Source: Vermamoeba vermiformis (taxonomy: Eukaryota). Taken from it: a stretch of DNA of 64,000 nucleotides. The notes beneath the pieces are model-generated. The model did no database searches, was not told the DNA's origin, and saw only the letters and a list, made by a program, of their open reading frames with translations. This document shows positions 1 to 24,007 of this stretch, piece by piece. Within the stretch, counting starts at the first letter, position 1, and the number at the start of each line of letters is the position of its first letter. The stretch covers positions 62,001 through 126,000 of the forward strand of contig JBEWZL010000053.1 in the NCBI GenBank assembly GCA_045837725.1, written 5' to 3'. The position numbers were made by a program, and so were the translations under genes.

Positions 1-1529
1 ACGTCGGAAAAAACAGTGGCATCGTAAGTCAGATCTAAATCAATTATTCAACGTGCAAATATTAATTTTATGCTTCAAATTTCTGTCTATGATAAATTTA
101 AATAATATCACGAGAATTAATGGCTTAGTGATGAACTTCTTATCATCCTTATCTGCGTAGTATGAATAAGATTGATTTTAATATGATTCTAATTTGCCAA
201 TTACAAATTCATAGTACTTCATATTATTAACTCATAGCAACATATTTAATAACGTATTTTACGTGGTTTTAGTTCTTCGCATTCCATCAGTCCAGTACGT
301 GCTTGGGCAATCTCTTAGGCGCTGTTCTATTAAGCAGTGGAGGCGTTAGCAATGTCGTATTGTTCATTATATTCACTGTTATTGGCATATTTGGTGTTGC
401 TGTATTCTTAGCGCTAAGGTAAGCACTTGGAAAATATTCTTTGCTTGGATCGAGATCGCTAACTTTCCAAATTTAGAAATCCGCCGCAGACCTCCGAAGA
501 GATCGCACTGCGCGCTGAAAATGCTAAGCAGCCGTTGTCTTATCGATTGTTCAAGGCATTTACTATGTTCAAAGACAAACGATTTTTGATTTTGGTTCCG
601 TTCATCATTTACAGCGGCATGAGGTACGAATAACGATATCGATTACCAAATAAGGAAATATTCATATTAATGTCTATATGTAGTCAAGGATATATCTACG
701 GAACATTTGCTACGGAGCTTGGAAAGTTTTGGTTGGGTTGGGTCATGGCCTCTTTTGGCGCGTCAAATGCTCTTTGTACGTACTTCCGATTGACATTTTG
801 ACACGTGTCATCGCTCATGCTCGGCACCGACGCCTTTCTCTAATACTTTTCCATATTAATAGGCTCGACTATGGTTGGCAAAATCCTCAGCAAGATCGGC
901 TGCAAAGGCACCATTACTTTATCGACGGTGTGCTTCCTTATTTGCAGTATTACGATGGCTGCAACACCGACTGAAGTCTTGCAACAAAATTACGGTGTTT
1001 TGTTCATGTGCGCCATTTTCTTAGGTACGTACAAGTTATTCGGTGGAGCTGGGTCTCTCGAAATTTCAACATTTGTATACAATGAGGTTAAATCTTTAAT
1101 GTACTAATATGATTATGATTATCAGGTGCGGCAGATGCAGGCTATAATACGACAATTTACGCGATCTGGGGCGCGTACTGGCCAAAAACAATTGAAATGG
1201 CATTTGGAGGCTTTAGATTTATTCAAGGCTCAGCTATTGCACTATTTTTGGGCATAGGACCGGTAGTTAACTTGACGCAAGCCACAGTGCTTATCGTCGT
1301 GTTTATCTTCGCCGGATTGACTGCCGTCCTAATCTGCGATCGAATTATTCAGCCTATGGATATTAAGCCTGGTCAAGAGGATCATAACGAAGTTAATTTT
1401 ACTACGAGCACCCATACAGAAGTCGCTTCTGCTTTGGAGAATGGCGATCATTACACGAATGGAACGGATGTGGATGACATGAGATCCGTTCCTCTCGACG
1501 ACAACTCACCTGTTACTGGAGCAGCCTAA
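1..1529 (+). CDS. UNC-93-like MFS membrane protein (5' part outside window; multi-exon)
   Basis: Spliced exons give VGKNSGI|FFAFHQSSTCLGNLLG...MFKDKRFLILVPFIIYSGM|SQGYIYGTF...AFGGFRFIQG. These motifs are typical of the UNC93 family. Several hydrophobic helices; stop at 1527-1529. Confidence 0.75.
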
Positions 1530-6919: not shown

Positions 6920-9080
6920 ATGACAAGCACAACAAAACGAAAACAATCGGATCTCGCGGATCTACCAGAACTCGTTCCGCCTTCTAAAAAGCAAAAGATT
7001 GACACCTCCGATGGTAAGTCTGTAAATATTGCTTGTAAACTAATTATGAAATCGCAGGCAAGATAAAGAAATTGTGGCATAAAATCGCAGATCGATGTAA
7101 GGGACTAGAATTTGAGCCTGCATCTGACGAGCAAATTGACTCGTGGGAAAATTCACTAAGAAGAAAGATAAACAAGCACTTCAAGCAGTTTGACGCGAAG
7201 AAGCTCAAATTTCCTGATGAATTAAGAACCTTATGGAAGATCTGCGGCAATGGCGCCCGTCATTTTGCTCGAGAATTTGAGAATACTCATTACAATATGC
7301 TTCAAGAATTTTCTAATTTTATTGGAGATGGTGCGAGTCACGTACAAGCATACACATCCGACATAAATTTGATGGGCGGAAACCACAATTTCGAAAACGG
7401 CGATGACTTTCAAGTAGTAAGAACACCTTATTGGGTAAGCAATAATAGTCCTTCAATATCTATCACATTATTGCTGTAAAATAACAAAGGTGGATCTGAC
7501 CCAAATTTCATTGGCCTAGGCAAAATTCGGTGAAGAAGGAGAATTTTGTGAAATGTTTATCTATTGCGATGCTACGAGCGGTAATTACGGCGCAATTCAT
7601 CGCTTTAACTACGAATTGCAAGAAACAGTCTTTGTTTGCGATTCTTTGGCGACGTACTTGGAGCACCTTGGCAACTATCTGAACGACGTGCTAATTTTTG
7701 AAAATTTCTCGCGAGAAGTCTTAGTACGGTAAGTCACAAGGCCTATTCATTTTTAAACTTATAGTGTTAAAACTCTAATTATCAAAGGCGATTTATCGGC
7801 GCTAAGAACGGGGTTGTCAAAATTGCCGGGGAATTTGACACGTGTCATAGTTCAAGCTGGAATCGTGTCAAACTCGGAGACAGGCCATTAGAAGACGCGT
7901 TGAAAGTGGCAAAAGGCACGTCGTTCATTAAAATCAGCACGTGTTTGCAAAAACTTGGTCCCAATACTCCAGTCGCCAGCATCGAAGACTACAAGATGAT
8001 CTTGCAAAACTTCTCGCCCGATCTCGATCAATATCTCGAGCTGTATCCGGAACAAAACAGCAGCTCGTTGAAAACCAACATCATATCGCCAGCCAGCGAA
8101 CAACAGAAACAAGACTCGTTCACGCCTATTACCGAGACCAAAAAAACAGCTCCAAAGCTGACTGACGCGCATTGGACTCAACATCGCAAACGTGTACGAG
8201 CGAAGCTGACTGATGTGTTCAGGCGTGTCAACAAGTCAAAGTTGACAGATGTCAAAGACGCGAGTGACGCGCACATTAGAAAACTCGCCAAAGAGATTGA
8301 AGCAGCGCTCGTGAACAAAGTACCACGTGAAAAGTACTTACCGGAGTTCCGCGCATTAGTCTCTAGTTTGCCGAAGAACCTCTCGCTCTGTAGCCAGTTG
8401 TTGAACGGAAAACTCAGCGCTGAAGAGCTCGTCAAGATGGACAACGATCAATTGGCACCAGAGGCGTTGAGAGAACTGCGAGCCAAGCATCAGAATCAAT
8501 TGCCCATCGGTGTCAGAGACGAGACGGTGGTCGTAACAGGCGATGACCAAACGATGGACAAAACGACTGTCGAGCATCACTCCAAAGTCCTGGACACGCA
8601 GAACGATCGCATGACTGAAGAACGAAGAATGAGTTCGTTAGCGGATGTCAATAGAGAAGAAAATCTGATGGATCCAAATACCATTGCCTCTGGCGTGCCT
8701 GAAGAGCCGCCGCTTGACGAGAAAGAAGTGACCGTTGATTCTCCGACCAGCATTGAAAAGCAGTACCCTAAAGAACGAATTCAGCCCGAAACTGATAAAA
8801 TGTTTTTCATTAGAAATCATTATTCAGGTAAAGATTTTTTTCTTACCGTGAAAAATTCGCGAGATATTTTTAACATTTTTTCACAACAGGACTTGGCGTC
8901 GAGTGCAACTGGGCTGAACTGAAAGATGCATACGCCTGGGTCGAGAATGATGCAGCCTTTGATGTCTACATTAAGTACGAGAAGTTAAAAGAAATGACGG
9001 GTGAAAAGATCGGCAAAATTAACGCGAAGCATTTCTGGATCAACAACACTCAAACGACTGGAATTATGGAACAGTCCTAA
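6920..9080 (+). CDS. SUKH/SMI1-KNR4 protein with inserted TFIIS central-like domain (paralog B, 5 exons)
   Basis: SUKH-like: FEPASDEQIDSWE...LKFPDELRTLW and MFIYCDATSGNYGAIH...CDSLATYLEHL. TFIIS_M-like: RKRVRAKL...LAKEIEAAL...EFRALVSSLPKNLSLCSQLLNGKLSAEELVKMDNDQLAPEALR. NLS-like KRK..PPSKKQK. Confidence 0.7.
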
Positions 9081-9159
9081 ATAGAACATTGTGTCAAACC
9101 CATTTTAAAAAGAAATAAAATATAGCATTAGAATTGATCATAAGAATTCCCGTTAGTTT

Positions 9160-11666
9160 TTACTGCTCGACGTTCATTCGTTCGCGGATCTTGACCGTCA
9201 AAAACAAGTGCACCTTCTTATTGAAATACTTCGATAAATCTTCACGCGCTTCTTGTGATATCGCTGCAATAACAGAGGCACCAGATCCAACGAGAATTCG
9301 CTGCGAAAAAGTAAGTCAGATCTGGGATGCAAAAAAAATAAGGCAAAATAGTACTAAGGAGATTAAAAAGCAAAAAAGATAAGAGCACAACACCTCCGAT
9401 TCCCAGGTAGTCTCCTGCCCCAGTACTAAGAAGGCCTGAACAAGCTTAACTTCGCTGATCGGACGGGAAGCGGTGCATTCTTGTTAGTGTGGTCGTGCCC
9501 GAGACGCTTTGCAACGTCATACTCGGGTCACTACTTACAGGCCTAACAAAAATGCACGCACTTCACATCCGTAATGATTGATCTAATTATATTGGTTTGA
9601 GTGCAATACTAACCTTATGAGCATTCTTCGTAACAAAAATGACTTGATCGATGCGCAAATCTCCGTTCTTGCACGGCGTAAATCCGACGTTTTCTTGTCT
9701 AGTCTGGTACGGAATTTCTTTGTTGGTTCGCTTGAAAATTTTTTCACGGACAATTTCTTCGATGATTTGCAAATCAGCCAAAGATGATTTCTAGAAATAT
9801 ATAGTTAGTAAAATAGACTTATTTAAATGCCCAAATCTTACGTATTCTTTCGGGAAGAGCCATTCACGAGGTTCGGCCTTTGTCATCAAATATTCCTAAA
9901 AAGGAAATCAGATCGAGATCTGCGCTTGATTTCGTGTTAATAGCGTACCTTTAACTCCTCAGTATTCTTTCCGTTCTTAGCTGAGACTAAAAATATCCTC
10001 TTGAAGATTGTATGCAAATTGGGGAACCTGTGTTCAAATCGACCGACAATTCTGGCTCTATCGTCTGCGTCATCTGCCAAATCAACCTAAAAACATAATT
10101 TCCTAAGTATAATATATTTTACTAAATTATGTAGAATTTTTGCGTTCGGGGTAGAAAAATTTTGATCGAGGGTTAGGGTTTGAAAATTGAAATTCCTTTA
10201 GCCTACCTTATTTAACACTAATATATAATCCAACGGTACTGGCTCGACATCTTCATGCTCTACAAGTGGTTCATAATCTTGATCTTCCTCAGGCAACTCG
10301 TCATCGCCGATCTCGATCTCAACGGATTTGATCAGATCTGCTTCCATCTCTTTTTTGGATTTTTTCTTCGAATTCATTTTCTGTTTCATTTCTTTTAATA
10401 ATTTTTCTTGCTCGATTTTTTCAGCCTCTTTGTTCTTTCTGTACTCTTCTAAATCCTTTTGAAATTGTTTTTGTCTTCTTTCAATACCGACAATAATATT
10501 CTGCAAATCAATATCGATTGTTTTAACCGCATCTACCACGAGCATAACTACATAAATAGCAAATTAATAAATTTTCTTTCAAGGTAGATCCGGATCGACT
10601 TACCGAAGTCGCACTCATCAGTAGCGTTCCAAGCCGCAGTTACAATTTGGGAGTTAATCCTAATGCATATTTAACATCTTTTGCATAATAAAATTGATAA
10701 ATTGAACGCGCTTACTTTTTTCTCATTCGTGTGCTAACGATTCCAGGAGTATCGGTAAAAATCTTCAAGAGACGTTAGAACTACCAATTAATTATTATAC
10801 TACCATAACTTACGAGTTGTGTGTCACCAGTAGTTGCAATACCATATAAATTTGTTCGCGTAGTTTGTGCTTTTGGAGAAACAGCCGTGATCTAAAAATT
10901 ATTTCAAATATTAGTCGCTTCCCTTCAAAAATAGTACTAGCGCAATGATATTAATTACATATTACTTTTATATTACGAAACATATTACGTACTTTGGCTC
11001 CAACAATTCTGTTCACGAGGGTTGACTTTCCCGCATTTGGAGCACCAATAACGGCAATATTTAAGGACTTGGGATTCTCAGGCTGTTCTGGGGATTTCAC
11101 TGGAAGCATTTTTTGATTGATTCCTATTTAAAAATATGTTTAGAAGGGCTCCTGTCTGGATGAGGATCGCGATCCAAAAAACGCGTGAAAATAATTCACC
11201 AAAATTTAAATAAAATATTACACTCCCATATTTATCGTTAATGATTATTCAGTAATTGAATAGCGTCGTATGAATACGAATTAGAATTACCTGCTTCTTT
11301 TATTTGCCAGCTCAACGGCGATCGCATAAATTTTCTTCGTTCTTTTTCTTCCTTTTGTCGCTTCTTTTGCAATTCTTCCTCCATTAGTCTAATTTTCTCG
11401 GCCTCTTCAGCTTTTTTCGCCTCCTCGGACTTTGGGAAAACATATTTTTTCATGATCGAATAAGATCTTGACGTTCGTAAACGTAGTTGATTATTTCTGG
11501 TTGCGTGATATATAGAAAAAATTCCAGTATTATTCCTGACTATAAATAAAAATATTTAATAAACATGGAGTGAACTCAGATCGTTCCGTCTGTACTTACC
11601 TGCAGGACTCACAGATCGCGCGCAGGCTCGCGTACAATAAATCAAGTATTTACACAACGTCGCCAT
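9160..11666 (-). CDS. ERAL1: Era-family GTPase (ERAL1-like, probably mitochondrial), multi-exon
   Basis: IAVIGAPNAGKSTLVN, TAVSPKAQTTR, FTDTPG, LVLNKV, EIVREKIF..EIPY and a KH-like tail RILVGSGA..KVHLFLTVK. The basic N-terminus resembles a transit peptide. Confidence 0.9.
9365..9377 (-). terminator. RNA polymerase III oligo-T terminator of the 5S gene
   Basis: TTTTTTGCTTTTT on the minus strand just after the 5S 3' end. Confidence 0.8.
9381..9500 (-). rRNA. 5S ribosomal RNA gene within the last intron (9301-9613) of Era
   Basis: Minus strand GGGCACGACCACACTAACAAGAATGCACCGCTTCCCGTCCGATCAGCGAAGTTAAGC...TTAGTACTGGGGCAGGAGACTACCTGGGAATC...GTTGTGCTC. About 119-120 nt with conserved eukaryotic 5S motifs. 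The 5' and 3' ends pair as helix I. Confidence 0.95.
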
Positions 11667-19065: not shown

Positions 19066-22000
19066 TTACTTTATTTTAAACTCGGTTTCGTACATTGCCT
19101 CTAATCTATCAATAATAATTTGAATTGGCAATCTTTGGCTAGGTTCTTGCTGCCAACAACCGCCAATCAGATCCGCGTAGTCTGAAGGACATCCAGCAGG
19201 AATTACTTCGCGATTGCCGTCGAGAACGAATTTAGTCACGTCCCATATATGGTTAAATGCTGAATATGGCTCTTTTTGCGTGACCAAGACCCACAAAAGT
19301 ACTCCAAAGCTGTAAATGTCTGCTGCCTTATCGTACCGCTTCTTCTTTAATATTTCTGGGGCCATATAAATAGGAGTGCCAACATTTTTGGTGTAACTTT
19401 CAATTTTGTCTTCGTAGATCTGCCTCGCACTGCCAAAGTCACTCAACCGAATCAACAATGGCGAGTTTACGTCCGTTGACTCGATTAATACGTTTTCGGG
19501 CTTAATATCGCGATGCAATACGTTATTTTTGTGCAAAAACTGAATTGCTTTCGCGATCTCCAATGCGATCCGTAACTTTGTGCCGTACGGAATTTTTTTC
19601 TGCATCCACTTTTCTAAACTTCCATTAGGCATGAACTTTGTAACTATTGCCAACTTTCCAGGAAGATTAGAAGCACCAACAAATGGCACTATTCCTTCGT
19701 ACTTTAGCGTCGACAACAAGTGGATCTCGCGGTCAAATTCTTCGAGGGTCTTCGCATCCACGAACTCTTGAGCTCGGAGCATCTTTACTGCAACATCTTC
19801 TCCTCGATATTTGCCTCGATATACTACGCCAAAGCCACCTTCTCCAATTGGCGCTGATTCTTTATCGATTTCATCAATATCGATCCACACTGAAGGACTT
19901 GAAACTAGGTTGCACGAGAGGTAAAAATGTTTGGCAAGCTGAGGCAATTCAACGCCAATGAGGGCACTAACATTCGTCGTAATATTCATCTTCACCTTAA
20001 TTTGAACTGTCTGATCGTTGTCGCTGTCTTCTACGTTGATCAATTTTGACTTTTTAGTCTTTCGTTTGCTGTCCAATAACAAATGTTTAGGTTCCACAAC
20101 CAACTCACATTTGGGACTAATAGGCGGATGAAACACGATAACACAAGGGTTATCCGTTCCGAACTTCATCAATGGCACTGATTCGTTGATATTTGTATTG
20201 GGCTTCAGTTTGAACGACGCCAATGCAGATCCGATGCCTCCGCGCCATTCAATTGCCACGGTGTCTGTATACTCCTCGCCAACTGTCAAACTATCAGCTG
20301 CTCCAAAGTCAATGGAAGTCTTGGACAGCGCGAACGGCAGCTTGTTAACATTGCATAACTTTGAGTCTTCTGGCGGCATCCAAGGCCTTAGTAACGGGTA
20401 CTTAATATCGTCAACGCCGTAAGTGGCCTTTGAGAACGACATGTTTCGTCGTTGGTTGATTTGACGGCGTACAAAAACAACCACTGCCACGGCAATTGCG
20501 ATGGTCAGAAGAGCAACTGGGCCAACTATGAGAGCTGTCTGAGTATCTGACAATCGCACAGTGACCTTCACTTCATCGCTCTTTGTTTCGCCTGCCGGGT
20601 TGGACAAAAGCACGCTGTATCGATTTCCTTGCATTGCCAACGAAGCCTCAAACTGCAGCGTTTTTCCGATCTCCTACAAATGACTTGTTAACTAACTCCT
20701 ACCCGCCGTTAACGCGTTTTACTTACGCCTTCAATCTTTTCGCCGTTCTTGAACCATTGGTAAGATAGCCTTAGTGTCGGGTTTGCAAGTGCAGTGATTG
20801 TAGCAATTTGTCCAGACTTGACATCAGGTGCCTGCAGCGGTTGTTGAAGCACAGGTGCACCAAGCAGAATGACACTTGCGACGAATGTGCTCACTCGTGA
20901 TGAAGCGTAGCTGATCACAATTGAATATTGGCCGCTAAATTTTTCCGTAACATTCGTAATCTCAAGCGTTGTTCCGGTAGCGCCTGCCAAATTTGGTCAA
21001 TAATCAAGTTAAAAAATATGAATATAGAACTTACTGTTAAATAATACAGATTGATTGATGTACCATGAAATAGCAAAAGTGCTGTCATTGAGCTTCGTAT
21101 TCAAGCTCACGGAAAGTGTCACATTGTCACCTGCAAACACTTCGATGTTGGACACTTGTGGCGTGTTGATGGTCAACGCAGCGATTGATAGTTGGAACTT
21201 ATAAGGCCCCGCAGTGCCCGCAGCATTATGTAACAAAAGGTGATACATTCCGTTGTCTTCATTCGTCGTCTTTGCAATGGAAAGTTGACCTATTGTCGTG
21301 TTCATGAACCACTCGCCATGTCGTCGCCACTCGTAGACTAGATCATATCCAGTAGCCTCTACCGTGATATTCAAGCTAGAGTCGGATAGTGCCTCGTAGA
21401 TTGTCTCCAACGGGCGAGTAAGTTTGGGTGCTGTAATAACAAAAAGTCGGGTGCTCGTCGTTGCCGTGCCTGCGGGATTGGTCACCACAACTTTAACGAC
21501 AGAACTGTTGAATTGAGTTGATATCGACAAGGTCAATTGTGATGAGTTACTGTTTGGTTGAAGTTTGTCGTCAATGTACCACTCGTAGCTTGCAACATCA
21601 CCACGAACGTGAACTTCAAATGTATATGGCTTTTGCTCTATGACCATAGTTTGAGTTGGAAATTCATCGACAAGTGGCACGGCGCTAATTTCGACACTAA
21701 CGTTCTTGCCTAGGACAGTTCCTGAAGGATTGGAGACTTGCGGCATGACGAAAAAATCTTGCGTGATGTTCGTGACGGTGAGAATTGATGAATTATACGT
21801 AGATTCGATGGCGCTGGTTAATCCAGGTGGCATGTTCCAGTCAAAATTCAAGCGTTCACCAGTGGCCTGCACGCTGAAAACAATACTTTGGCCAACGAAA
21901 TAATTCACCGCTGGAGTGTCAGGTGTTTGTTGGACGATAGTTGGTGCTGGCTGTAACGCAAAGGTGAAGTTCACCGATGACCCAAAGTTGACATTGTAAG

Positions 22001-24007
22001 CCTCGCCTGTGATAACTGTGCCGTTCTCGTTTGCTTGAAGTGGCCACAATTTAAATGTCGGTGTGTCCACGTTGCTAATTGGCTTTGAATTGTCGTACCA
22101 TCTATATTGCACGTCTCTTCCAGTTGCGTTGATGTACAAAGTAGGTACGTCATTGACGAAGTATAAAAGTGCCGATGGGGAATGGTCGACAATTGTCGGA
22201 GCTGGCTCCGGGTACACGTGAACAATCGGACTGAGAGCACCTCCAGAAGGGTTTGACGCTCGCATTTGATAGGTCGCTGGTGCCAAGCTGTCATTGAGTT
22301 GAACACCCCATGTCGGACTCTGAGTAGACTGTGATACTATCACGCCGTTTCGTAGCCAACTGTACCACAATCCTTCGCCTCGGACGAGTCCAGTCATGTT
22401 GATATATGTTCTCTCATTACGCAACAAATACATGTCAGGGAACGACGTCACGGTGAACCAGGGCTTCGGCTTAATGACCAAAATAAAGGGCTTCGACAGC
22501 GCGAATCCGTTCGGGTTGGACACATTTGCGACGATTTCCGAAGAGTTCAGTGAAAACGAGCTTGCAGTGATTTGTATTGTCTGTTGGCCAGTGAGGCTTG
22601 GCTGTGCTTGTCCATTGATCAGCCATTCATATTGAAGTCGAACACCGGTCGCTGCGACAGAGTAAGTTACGCTCTCGTTCAAGAAAATAGAGCCTGTAGA
22701 TGCACTTGCACTCTTAATCACTGGTGCAGGATACGCAGTGACAATGCTCGGGGTTGAATTCAACACGAATCCGTCACCGCTGACACTCACGGTGTACGCA
22801 ACTCCGTTGTCTGTCATTGAGAACGGTGGGATGGTGTAGTTCGCGGTTGTTGCACCTGGTATTGGCTCGCCATTTTTGAACCACTGATACGAGACTGAAA
22901 TATCACCCTCTGTAGACTATGTATTAGTGACAAGCCAAACAAGCTACACTGTATATTACGTACTTAGCACGCCAACGGAGAGGTCGGAGGTGTCACCAAC
23001 AAACATGTGCACGGTACTCGGAGGATTCTCCGATATGACGAAGGGCTTGTCACTGATGAGAACAGTGCGTGAAGCGAGACCAGCTGGGCACAGGTAGTCT
23101 ATTTTTACAGTATACTGGCCGTAATCTTGGGCTGTAAGGCCTGAAAAGTACAAATAGGACATGTCTGACAGGATCGTGGTCGAGTTGCCTTTGTACCAAG
23201 CGAATTTTAAAGTTCCCTTGTAGGCCACGTCGATCAATAGTGTCAAGGGCTTGCCAACTGTAGCTTGAATGAAGGGCTTGAATTTGTTGACCTTTAACTC
23301 GGGACACGAGGCCAACATAGCTTTGCCGGTGGTTCTTGTCGTGCCACATTTGTCGGTGATTTTCACTGAATAATAGCCAAGGTCTTCTCTCGTTACTGCG
23401 GCCATTTTGTACTTCCACTCTGTTGCTCCTGGTACTGGCTCGTCACTGTGCAGCCATTGATAGGTCAGTTCAGTGCCGGTTGCGTTCACTGAAAACTCTG
23501 CTGGATCTCCGACTTGTTGCACCCAAGCTTCTTTAGGAGATGAAAGTATTGAAAATGTTGAACAAAAATTCGTCGTGAAGTTCTTGGAATACGCATATTT
23601 GACGATACCACAGTTGTCATCGTGGTTGTAATAACTGAGCCTGAAGTTGCCACCTGGAATTGCATCGAGCGAGGCTTGCCATTTGTAGCTTAGTTTACCA
23701 ACTACTCCTACTATTTGTTTGCAAATTCCGCCATCGAGAGGGCACCAAGAAATTACGACCGTAGTTGAAGAGCATCCGTTTTTTGTGAAGAACCAACTCA
23801 ATGTAACTGTTTGACTCGCACGCAAGGGACCTCCATCGGGGTCGGTTTGAAAATATTCAAGCCCACTGTCTCCTTGGCCTATTTATCCGGATAATTAATT
23901 AATTATGTATTTTTAAAGCTCAATCCAAATCCTTGCTTACCATTACTGCTGTAAAATATCGTACATAATATAAATAAAATTGTAATGCACTTCATTAATT
24001 TAATCAT
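19066..24007 (-). CDS. Single-pass receptor kinase (TKL group) with about 11 Ig-like repeats
   Basis: Signal-peptide exon; repeats of F.V.ATG..L.Y.W..NG...Y.V...N..G; TM helix ALIVGPVALLTIAIAVAVVVFV; kinase motifs GEGGFG, VAVK, HRDIKPEN, DFG, GTPIYMAPE. Confidence 0.9.

Follow-up and report, generated by a model that had tools for sequence, protein, structure and literature searches.

A complete 5S rRNA unit in the final intron of an Era-type GTPase gene of Vermamoeba vermiformis, probably one member of a large dispersed family

The DNA analysed here, called the window in the following, is a stretch of 64,000 nucleotides (nt) from Vermamoeba vermiformis (assembly GCA_045837725.1, contig JBEWZL010000053.1, positions 62,001 to 126,000 of the forward strand). 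It contains a complete gene for 5S ribosomal RNA (rRNA) within an intron of a gene for an Era-type GTPase. The 5S rRNA gene has a length of 120 nt (9381..9500, minus strand) and lies on the same strand as Era, that is in sense orientation. Rfam cmscan was run over the whole 64-kb window at the gathering threshold and at E<=1, and with both settings the 5S rRNA gene was the sole match. For RF00001 a score of 101.8 bits (gathering 38, E 3.9e-21) was obtained at 9500..9382 of the minus strand, the alignment ending at 9382, covering the model from 1 to 120 of 120 and not being truncated. The original prediction, made from the letters of the DNA, had proposed a full-length sense 5S rRNA gene in an Era intron, and this was confirmed with Infernal. 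The minimum free energy (MFE) structure of the 5S rRNA has the three-arm shape, with helix I as closing helix and the arms II-III and IV-V. Stops occur within 24 codons in every reading frame of the gene. Genes for transfer RNA (tRNA) were not found in the 64-kb window by ARAGORN.

The host gene extends over 9160..11453 (minus strand) and consists of ten exons, which were joined by coordinates and encode 441 amino acids (aa). Exons 1-5 are located at 11453-11291, 11123-10993, 10891-10814, 10762-10716 and 10659-10604, and exons 6-10 at 10547-10207, 10086-9949, 9895-9842, 9790-9614 and 9300-9160, stop included (all minus strand). When the exons on either side of the 5S intron are joined, the protein frame is uninterrupted. 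With Pfam, MMR_HSR1 was detected on one early exon (E 7.9e-7) and KH_2 on the last exon (9300-9160; E 6.5e-7, profile 38-76 of 78). The first part of the KH_2 domain would sit on exon 9790-9614, on the other side of the 5S intron. In the translation GAPNAGKS, DTPG, NKVD and SAK are read as the motifs G1, G3, G4 and G5. Judged by its sequence, the host protein is of the Era / ERAL1 type, with an N-terminal TRAFAC GTPase domain and a C-terminal type-2 KH domain.

A protein-collection search with exon 9790-9614 as query gave two proteins among 16 candidates. P0001 has 437 aa and carries the JGI name 'GTP-binding protein Era'. Its source contig of 1858 nt is too short for such an intron load; hence, P0001 represents a spliced or intronless form. 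The Era model is colinear with P0001 (372 of 441 alignment columns identical), and the junction over the 5S intron, KNAHK/RILVG, is identical in P0001. The comparison also exposed an extra 5' exon (11453..11291) together with its intron (11290..11124); the ATG at 11109 had suggested one exon fewer. Introns 3-6 appear as joints in RNA, namely in contigs of X5 and reads of X23. For introns 1 and 2, loose ends of 9 letters that match the adjacent exon were observed in RNA (X5/X23).

The 5S unit is housed in intron 9, the last of nine (9301..9613, minus strand). This intron has a length of 313 nt and phase 0, and it begins with GT at 9613-9612 and ends with AG at 9302-9301, exactly as had been predicted. 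The other eight Era introns measure 167, 101, 51, 56, 56, 120, 53 and 51 nt. The 5S intron is 5.6 times as long as their median and 1.9 times as long as the largest of them. Without a unit of 172 nt about 141 nt are left. The motif CTGAC (9315..9319, minus strand), read from the letters 12 nt upstream of the 3' splice-site AG, resembles a branch point and may act as such with the branch A at 9316. The 5S unit is placed between the donor and this motif. On removal of GT..AG the frame is restored and colinear with the homologue, as is expected for a spliceosomal GT-AG intron, and homology together with the near-identity of the last exon to P0001 suggests that the 313 nt are removed.

The gene is part of a repeated unit of about 172 nt, in which the 5S rRNA sequence is preceded by 36 nt that include a conserved box and is followed by T-runs. 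The upstream region (9501..9536, minus strand) is common to other 5S copies according to loose-end consensuses from RNA and DNA runs. It is composed of the box AAGTAGTGACCC at 9536..9525 (-36..-25), the block CGTTGCAAA at 9516..9508 and GCGTCTC at 9507..9501 (all minus strand). Downstream, a run of six T (9377..9372) begins 4 nt past the 5S end and is followed by a run of five T (9369..9365). This region (9365..9377, minus strand) is the presumed terminator of RNA polymerase III (Pol III), in agreement with the oligo-T terminator that had been noticed, and the similarity to other copies ends here. Loose ends of RNA and of X1, a DNA run with the same species label and uniform depth over exons and introns, begin at 9373/9372/9365/9364 downstream of 5S. 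Upstream, the likeness of other copies to the window ends at 9536, 9515 or 9504-9500, and the X1 depth is at single-copy level again beyond 9538.

Within 30 letters upstream of other copies, GTGACCCGA and CGTTGCAAA were found at the same positions as in the window. The upstream consensus is formed by 18 reads of X21 (agreement 0.96) and 9 reads of X23 (0.93). The box AAGTAGTGACCC has one exact occurrence in the 64-kb window. It is also present upstream of 5S in L001 and twice in L002, two metagenome contigs that are described below. From this distribution we infer that the box is a 5S-specific upstream promoter element. The box (9525-9536) is partly complementary to 5S -3..+10 (9491-9503), and CCCGAG / CUCGGG and their neighbours pair in the intron fold. 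Since the CCC of the box varies in the loose-end consensuses of other copies, this complementarity may be a coincidence. Apart from the adjacent antisense relic considered below and chance words of 10-12 nt, no other 5S pieces were found in the window by blastn-short with the 172-nt unit. A 12-nt match to 5S nt 68-79 lies downstream (9361..9350). It is identical at 11 of 12 positions with a shuffle p of ~0.04 and was treated as weak.

The abundance of 5S sequence in X1 is far above that of the host gene. In the bin 9385-9461 the word depth sums to 106771, compared with 85-175 in most unique Era bins. Thus, 5S is about 1000 times deeper than its flanks (summed), for which depths of 138 at 9539-9615 and 104 at 9231-9307 were obtained. 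This depth is read as a family of between several hundred and about a thousand copies, and one 5S copy per 64-kb window fits the density estimated for the family. The downstream loose-end consensuses agree only at 0.53-0.67. Flanks therefore differ between copies, which indicates a dispersed family rather than one tandem array. One contig of X1 (record 1, depth 104, 9051-9394) runs from the 3' untranslated region through the last exon and the 3' part of the intron into 5S. It has its own differences from the window; hence, the junction of the intron with the 3' side of 5S is seen in a second data set. A few RNA reads of X21 join 5S parts via an 18-T run (plus-strand letters, window 9380-9468). 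Either oligoadenylated 5S fragments or an artefact of the library may account for them.

With the 30-nt start of 5S as query, two metagenome contigs were matched (L001 and L002), and no viral contigs and no contigs of prokaryote genomes were found. The 5S copy of L001 is complete (131..13, 104.7 bits) and has U at nt 84. Its box reads AAGTAGTGACCCGA, and immediately ahead of +1 about 15 nt are similar to those of the window. In L001 (1-720, minus strand) an exon for aminopeptidase P ends at a GTAAGT donor (569..564). The AMP_N domain is followed by Peptidase_M24, which reaches only profile position 96 of 208 before the donor. After the donor a tRNA-Ile(AAT) gene is located at 461..388 with its own T-run, and 5S begins 256 nt further on the same strand. 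Two Pol III genes would thus be located in one apparent intron. In L002 the PIP5K profile is reached to 188 of 288, the exon ends at a GTAAGC donor, and box and 5S come next on the same strand. A tandem duplication of ~56 nt, consisting of the upstream box and the first 6 nt of 5S, is found there (1154-1400). The box occurs twice at about -36, and 5S breaks off after ~50 nt. The L002 copy is a 3'-truncated 5S relic with the upstream box retained. In both contigs the downstream exon lies off the contig, and the assignment to introns is based on the donors and the incomplete domains.

The hosts in L001 and L002, aminopeptidase P and PIP5K, are unrelated; thus, the choice of Era looks accidental. 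According to the original prediction the link to Era would be a matter of chance if 5S copies were scattered at random, and a dispersed family with unrelated hosts was indeed found.

The three loci raise the question of a lineage-wide rule, by which 5S units are placed preferentially in spliceosomal introns and in sense orientation, either by targeted insertion or by selection for co-directional transcription by RNA polymerase II (Pol II) and Pol III or for open chromatin. At all three loci (window, L001, L002) the unit follows the donor of an incomplete domain on the coding strand, and the tRNA-Ile of L001 is co-oriented as well. Repeated hits are suggested by the older antisense 5S fragment in the Era intron. 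Furthermore, 5S reads of poly(A)-type cDNA run into unlike flanks (share 0.80-0.81 of placed reads), as would be expected of many copies contained in pre-mRNAs. However, three loci are a small number, for two of which the position in an intron is deduced from one side. The genome is compact and rich in introns, which account for 22-37% of the observed genes; many tolerated sites are intronic anyway. Likewise, little space seems to separate the Era stop (9160) from the coding sequence of the convergent neighbour, whose end is unmapped. By a rough, uncalculated guess the chance of three sense-intronic copies out of three is a few per cent. An absolute orientation is contradicted by the older relic, which is antisense. 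Any read of more than 120 nt includes flanks, whatever its context, and such reads could also stem from DNA carry-over. Such a rule, under which the Era unit would be one case among many instead of a chance insertion, is therefore regarded as tentative and rather improbable. The same holds for the view that the family of ~1000 copies resides largely inside spliceosomal introns in co-orientation, with the Era intron as a repeatedly hit site, which we consider doubtful to the same degree.

High copy number and dispersal would also be expected of a retroposed 5S pseudogene or of a short interspersed element (SINE) derived from 5S. In contrast to this expectation, 36 nt upstream of +1 are common to the copies. 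T-runs form the end of the unit, and neither an A-rich tail nor one like that of a long interspersed element (LINE) is present. No target-site duplication was found around the unit, the direct repeats in 9250-9660 being only internal or exonic. In L002 the 3' part was lost and not the 5' part. The shared untranscribed upstream region, the 3'-truncated copy that keeps its box and the missing of a tail and of a target-site duplication argue together against retroposition, which is very unlikely.

The age of the insertion can be assessed with the orthologous intron of a relative. P0002 is a gene call of 134 aa on a 1035-nt Logan contig of this relative and reads through the intron. It is 91% identical to exon 9790-9614, to which aa 1-56 correspond; aa 84-130 correspond to the last exon in a shifted frame, with 27 codons between. 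These 27 codons and the frame shift give a length of 79 nt for the orthologous intron. An intron of 79 nt cannot hold a 5S of 120 nt. Hence, 5S is absent there and the insertion is lineage-specific. Most likely, as far as these sequences can tell, the intron is old and 5S a later and fairly recent arrival; less simply, 5S would have been lost in the relative. A comparison of this intron in relatives had been proposed with the original prediction, and its outcome is an intron that leaves no room for 5S. The proposed mobile or dispersed 5S insertion fits the ~1000-fold depth, the unlike flanks and the lack of 5S in the 79-nt intron.

Taken together, the 5S rRNA gene of the window is probably a near-consensus member of a large dispersed 5S family that was inserted in the Era intron, the host being accidental. 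Each unit of ~172 nt looks self-sufficient: the box at ~-36..-23 and a block at ~-16..-1 precede the 5S of 120 nt, which includes the internal control region, and a T-run follows it. One such unit would have been inserted at the DNA level into the pre-existing last intron of Era, after the split from the relative with the 79-nt intron. By landing downstream of the 5' splice site but ahead of the branch-point region it would have left the intron removable. The identity of the host gene would be accidental, and this copy would contribute at most a tiny fraction of the cellular 5S.

Several observations weigh against this reading. No RNA read or contig of X21, X23 or X5 spans the last exon or its junction, and introns 7-9 are uncovered; the last exon (9300-9160) has zero depth in all three. 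In L001 the box is located at -79..-66 and not at -36..-25, which weakens a strict promoter reading. Summed contig depth is, according to a warning of the tool, not equal to copy number, and the diversity of flanks is taken from 24 partly placed X1 contigs of 590, plus RNA reads. That the 5S unit is in sense in an apparent intron at three of three loci is not strongly predicted by purely random placement. In unique parts, reads of the RNA runs show ~5 letter differences each from the window, and these runs may come from another strain. Furthermore, none of 106 RNA reads carries the C at nt 84 that distinguishes the window copy.

This C is a private substitution at position 9417 (9417..9417, minus strand) and is replaced by U in nearly all other copies. 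In RNA, 106 of 106 reads carry U at this position (41+37 in X21, 15+13 in X23), and U is also found in the single contig of X5. In the DNA run X1, U accounts for a depth of 102048.8 out of 102090.4. At the remaining 119 of 120 positions the 5S of the window is identical to the expressed 5S. In the predicted helix IV, C84 faces A93 as a C.A mismatch where U84 would form a pair. The MFE is -36.9 kcal/mol with C84 vs -41.6 kcal/mol for the U84 copy of L001 and is thus weaker by 4.7 kcal/mol. In the centroid structure of the window 5S only helix I is kept, and the arms II-V are gone. Nucleotide 84 lies in a region that we take, from work on Xenopus, to be box C of the internal promoter. C84 is private to the locus and, by these predictions, probably mildly damaging.

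It was asked from these data whether the copy is a silent pseudogene and passenger DNA, in which C84, the inverted relic or the passage of Pol II blocks Pol III. In addition to the RNA reads and the X5 contig (0 of 1), the low share of C84 in DNA depth (~41.6 of 102090), the broken pair in helix IV with its cost in energy, the centroid without arms II-V and the Rfam score of 101.8 bits, below the 104.7 bits of the L001 copy with U84, speak for a pseudogene. On the other hand, only 1 change is found in 120 nt, and the box, the proximal block at -16..-1, the rest of 5S and the T6 terminator are intact. With ~1000 copies, ~0.1 of 106 reads is expected even from an active copy; thus, the zero count of C84 reads is uninformative. 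Silence of the gene is possible but appears the less likely state. The test named in the original prediction, by which a copy that differs from the expressed 5S and is silent is a pseudogene, is answered in its first part by a difference at one position; for its second part 0 of 106 reads lack power. In view of its intact elements, Pol III transcription of the copy from +1 (9500) to T6 is probably still possible, with a negligible contribution to the 5S pool.

Next to the 5S unit, a relic of an antisense 5S fragment was identified at 9543..9571 (minus strand) by local alignment, by the inverted repeat and in the intron fold. Compared with the reverse complement of 5S nt 14-41 it agrees in 24 of 29 columns with one gap, and none of 500 shuffles reached this score. 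The relic is regarded as older than the full 5S copy. A repeat of 11 nt is common to exon 9790-9614 (9631-9641) and to the relic (9544-9554) but was judged to be of no explanatory value. The fold of the 313-nt intron has an energy of -95.8 kcal/mol and a z of -3.87, and 0 of 100 shuffles were as stable. This MFE structure lacks the 5S arms; instead, the 5' half of 5S is engaged in a long imperfect hairpin with the relic and the box region. As transcription by Pol II reaches the relic before 5S, its transcript is predicted to lack a 5S-like fold. Hence, the expectation that the Era pre-mRNA carries such a fold is not supported by the prediction. A Pol III transcript from 9500 lacks the relic and is predicted to fold normally.

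These results also bear on a functional coupling of 5S output to the expression of Era, either by release of 5S from the intron or by regulation of Era through the Pol III unit. The common strand and the ribosome-related host gene are in line with such a coupling, and Pol III complexes can impede Pol II. But the relative has an intron of 79 nt, so that the arrangement is not conserved, and the two other 5S units have unrelated hosts. Box and terminator belong to the unit itself and are common to copies elsewhere, and the 5S supply cannot be set by one copy of ~1000. For the intron RNA, no 5S fold is predicted. In addition, eukaryotic Era homologues generally serve organellar small subunits, while 5S belongs to the cytosolic large subunit. 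The coupling of 5S output to a ribosome-biogenesis gene, which had been offered as one explanation, is disfavoured by the unrelated hosts and the lack of conservation, and we regard it as extremely improbable. The reading as a family member that was inserted by chance in the Era intron is preferred.

Some further features of the host gene and of the window were observed. Exon 6 of Era (10207-10547) encodes a K/E-rich insertion of ~90 aa between G3 and G4, which is also present in P0001. The N-terminal extension is charged and K/E-rich, is likewise found in P0001, and by eye is unlike a typical mitochondrial presequence. Two telomere-like units (AACCCTAACCCT, minus strand) are located at 10169-10180, inside the 120-nt intron 6. 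For 11065-11224 two X1 contigs of near-equal depth (67.6 and 68) were found, one of them with 6 differences, which suggests two diverged haplotypes or copies in the sample. Outside the Era gene, large open frames at 19066-23882 (minus strand) contain several immunoglobulin/PKD-like domains and then a protein kinase domain, an architecture like that of a receptor kinase. The kinase part was matched only to generic kinase clusters that span many phyla.

Dispersed 5S rRNA genes are also known from Neurospora, Schizosaccharomyces and Acanthamoeba. The dispersed 5S genes of Yarrowia lipolytica are described with 108 full-length copies and eight relics, and 48 copies are next to tRNA genes (PMC2566860). 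The family described here resembles that of Yarrowia in its many unlinked copies outside the rDNA, its truncated relics, a tRNA near one copy (L001) and the small size of the Pol III units. In contrast, its apparent copy number is ~ten times higher, by an inexact count. Unlike in Yarrowia, the tRNA of L001 is 256 nt from 5S and has its own T-run, so that no dicistronic fusion is formed, and all three copies with readable context are in apparent introns.

Genes nested in introns are a second point of comparison. tRNA genes occur in introns of Caenorhabditis, and SINEs and retropseudogenes derived from 5S are known, e.g. SINE3 of zebrafish. Like the 5S SINEs, the family in question consists of 5S-related sequence in high copy number, scattered and often intronic. 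Unlike them, it has a complete 5S, a shared non-transcribed upstream region and a T-run end, and no tail and no target-site duplication. In human, Pol III units were reported in introns of Pol II genes (PMC3509611). The human and Caenorhabditis cases share with the Era intron an autonomous Pol III unit in a spliceosomal intron and no functional tie to the host. They differ in the nested gene, which is 5S here and not a tRNA, SINE or snRNA-like unit. Box C/D and H/ACA small nucleolar RNAs (snoRNAs) are intron-encoded small RNAs that are processed from the host pre-mRNA (PMC2566860). Similar to these intronic snoRNAs, the 5S of the window is in sense in an intron of a ribosome-related gene. In contrast to them, the 5S unit has its own box and terminator, and in the pre-mRNA it is predicted to be locked with the antisense relic. 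A description of 5S in an Era intron, or of systematically intronic 5S, was not found in the literature searched, with subscription journals and supplements being mostly outside this search.

In general, 5S genes that are dispersed are known, as are Pol III genes within introns, and the link to Era appears accidental. The single case matters little for this reason. The dispersed 5S family, which seems unusually large and has a sharply conserved box, is of value as a simple handle on the Pol III type 1 promoter of a non-model organism. If the genome-wide sense-intronic pattern were true, a 5S cassette of box, 5S and T-run would spread at the DNA level into transcribed introns, and overlap of Pol II and Pol III on the same strand would be routine at hundreds of genes. 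Vermamoeba would then be a natural system for the sharing of templates by Pol II and Pol III and for the spread of rRNA cassettes.

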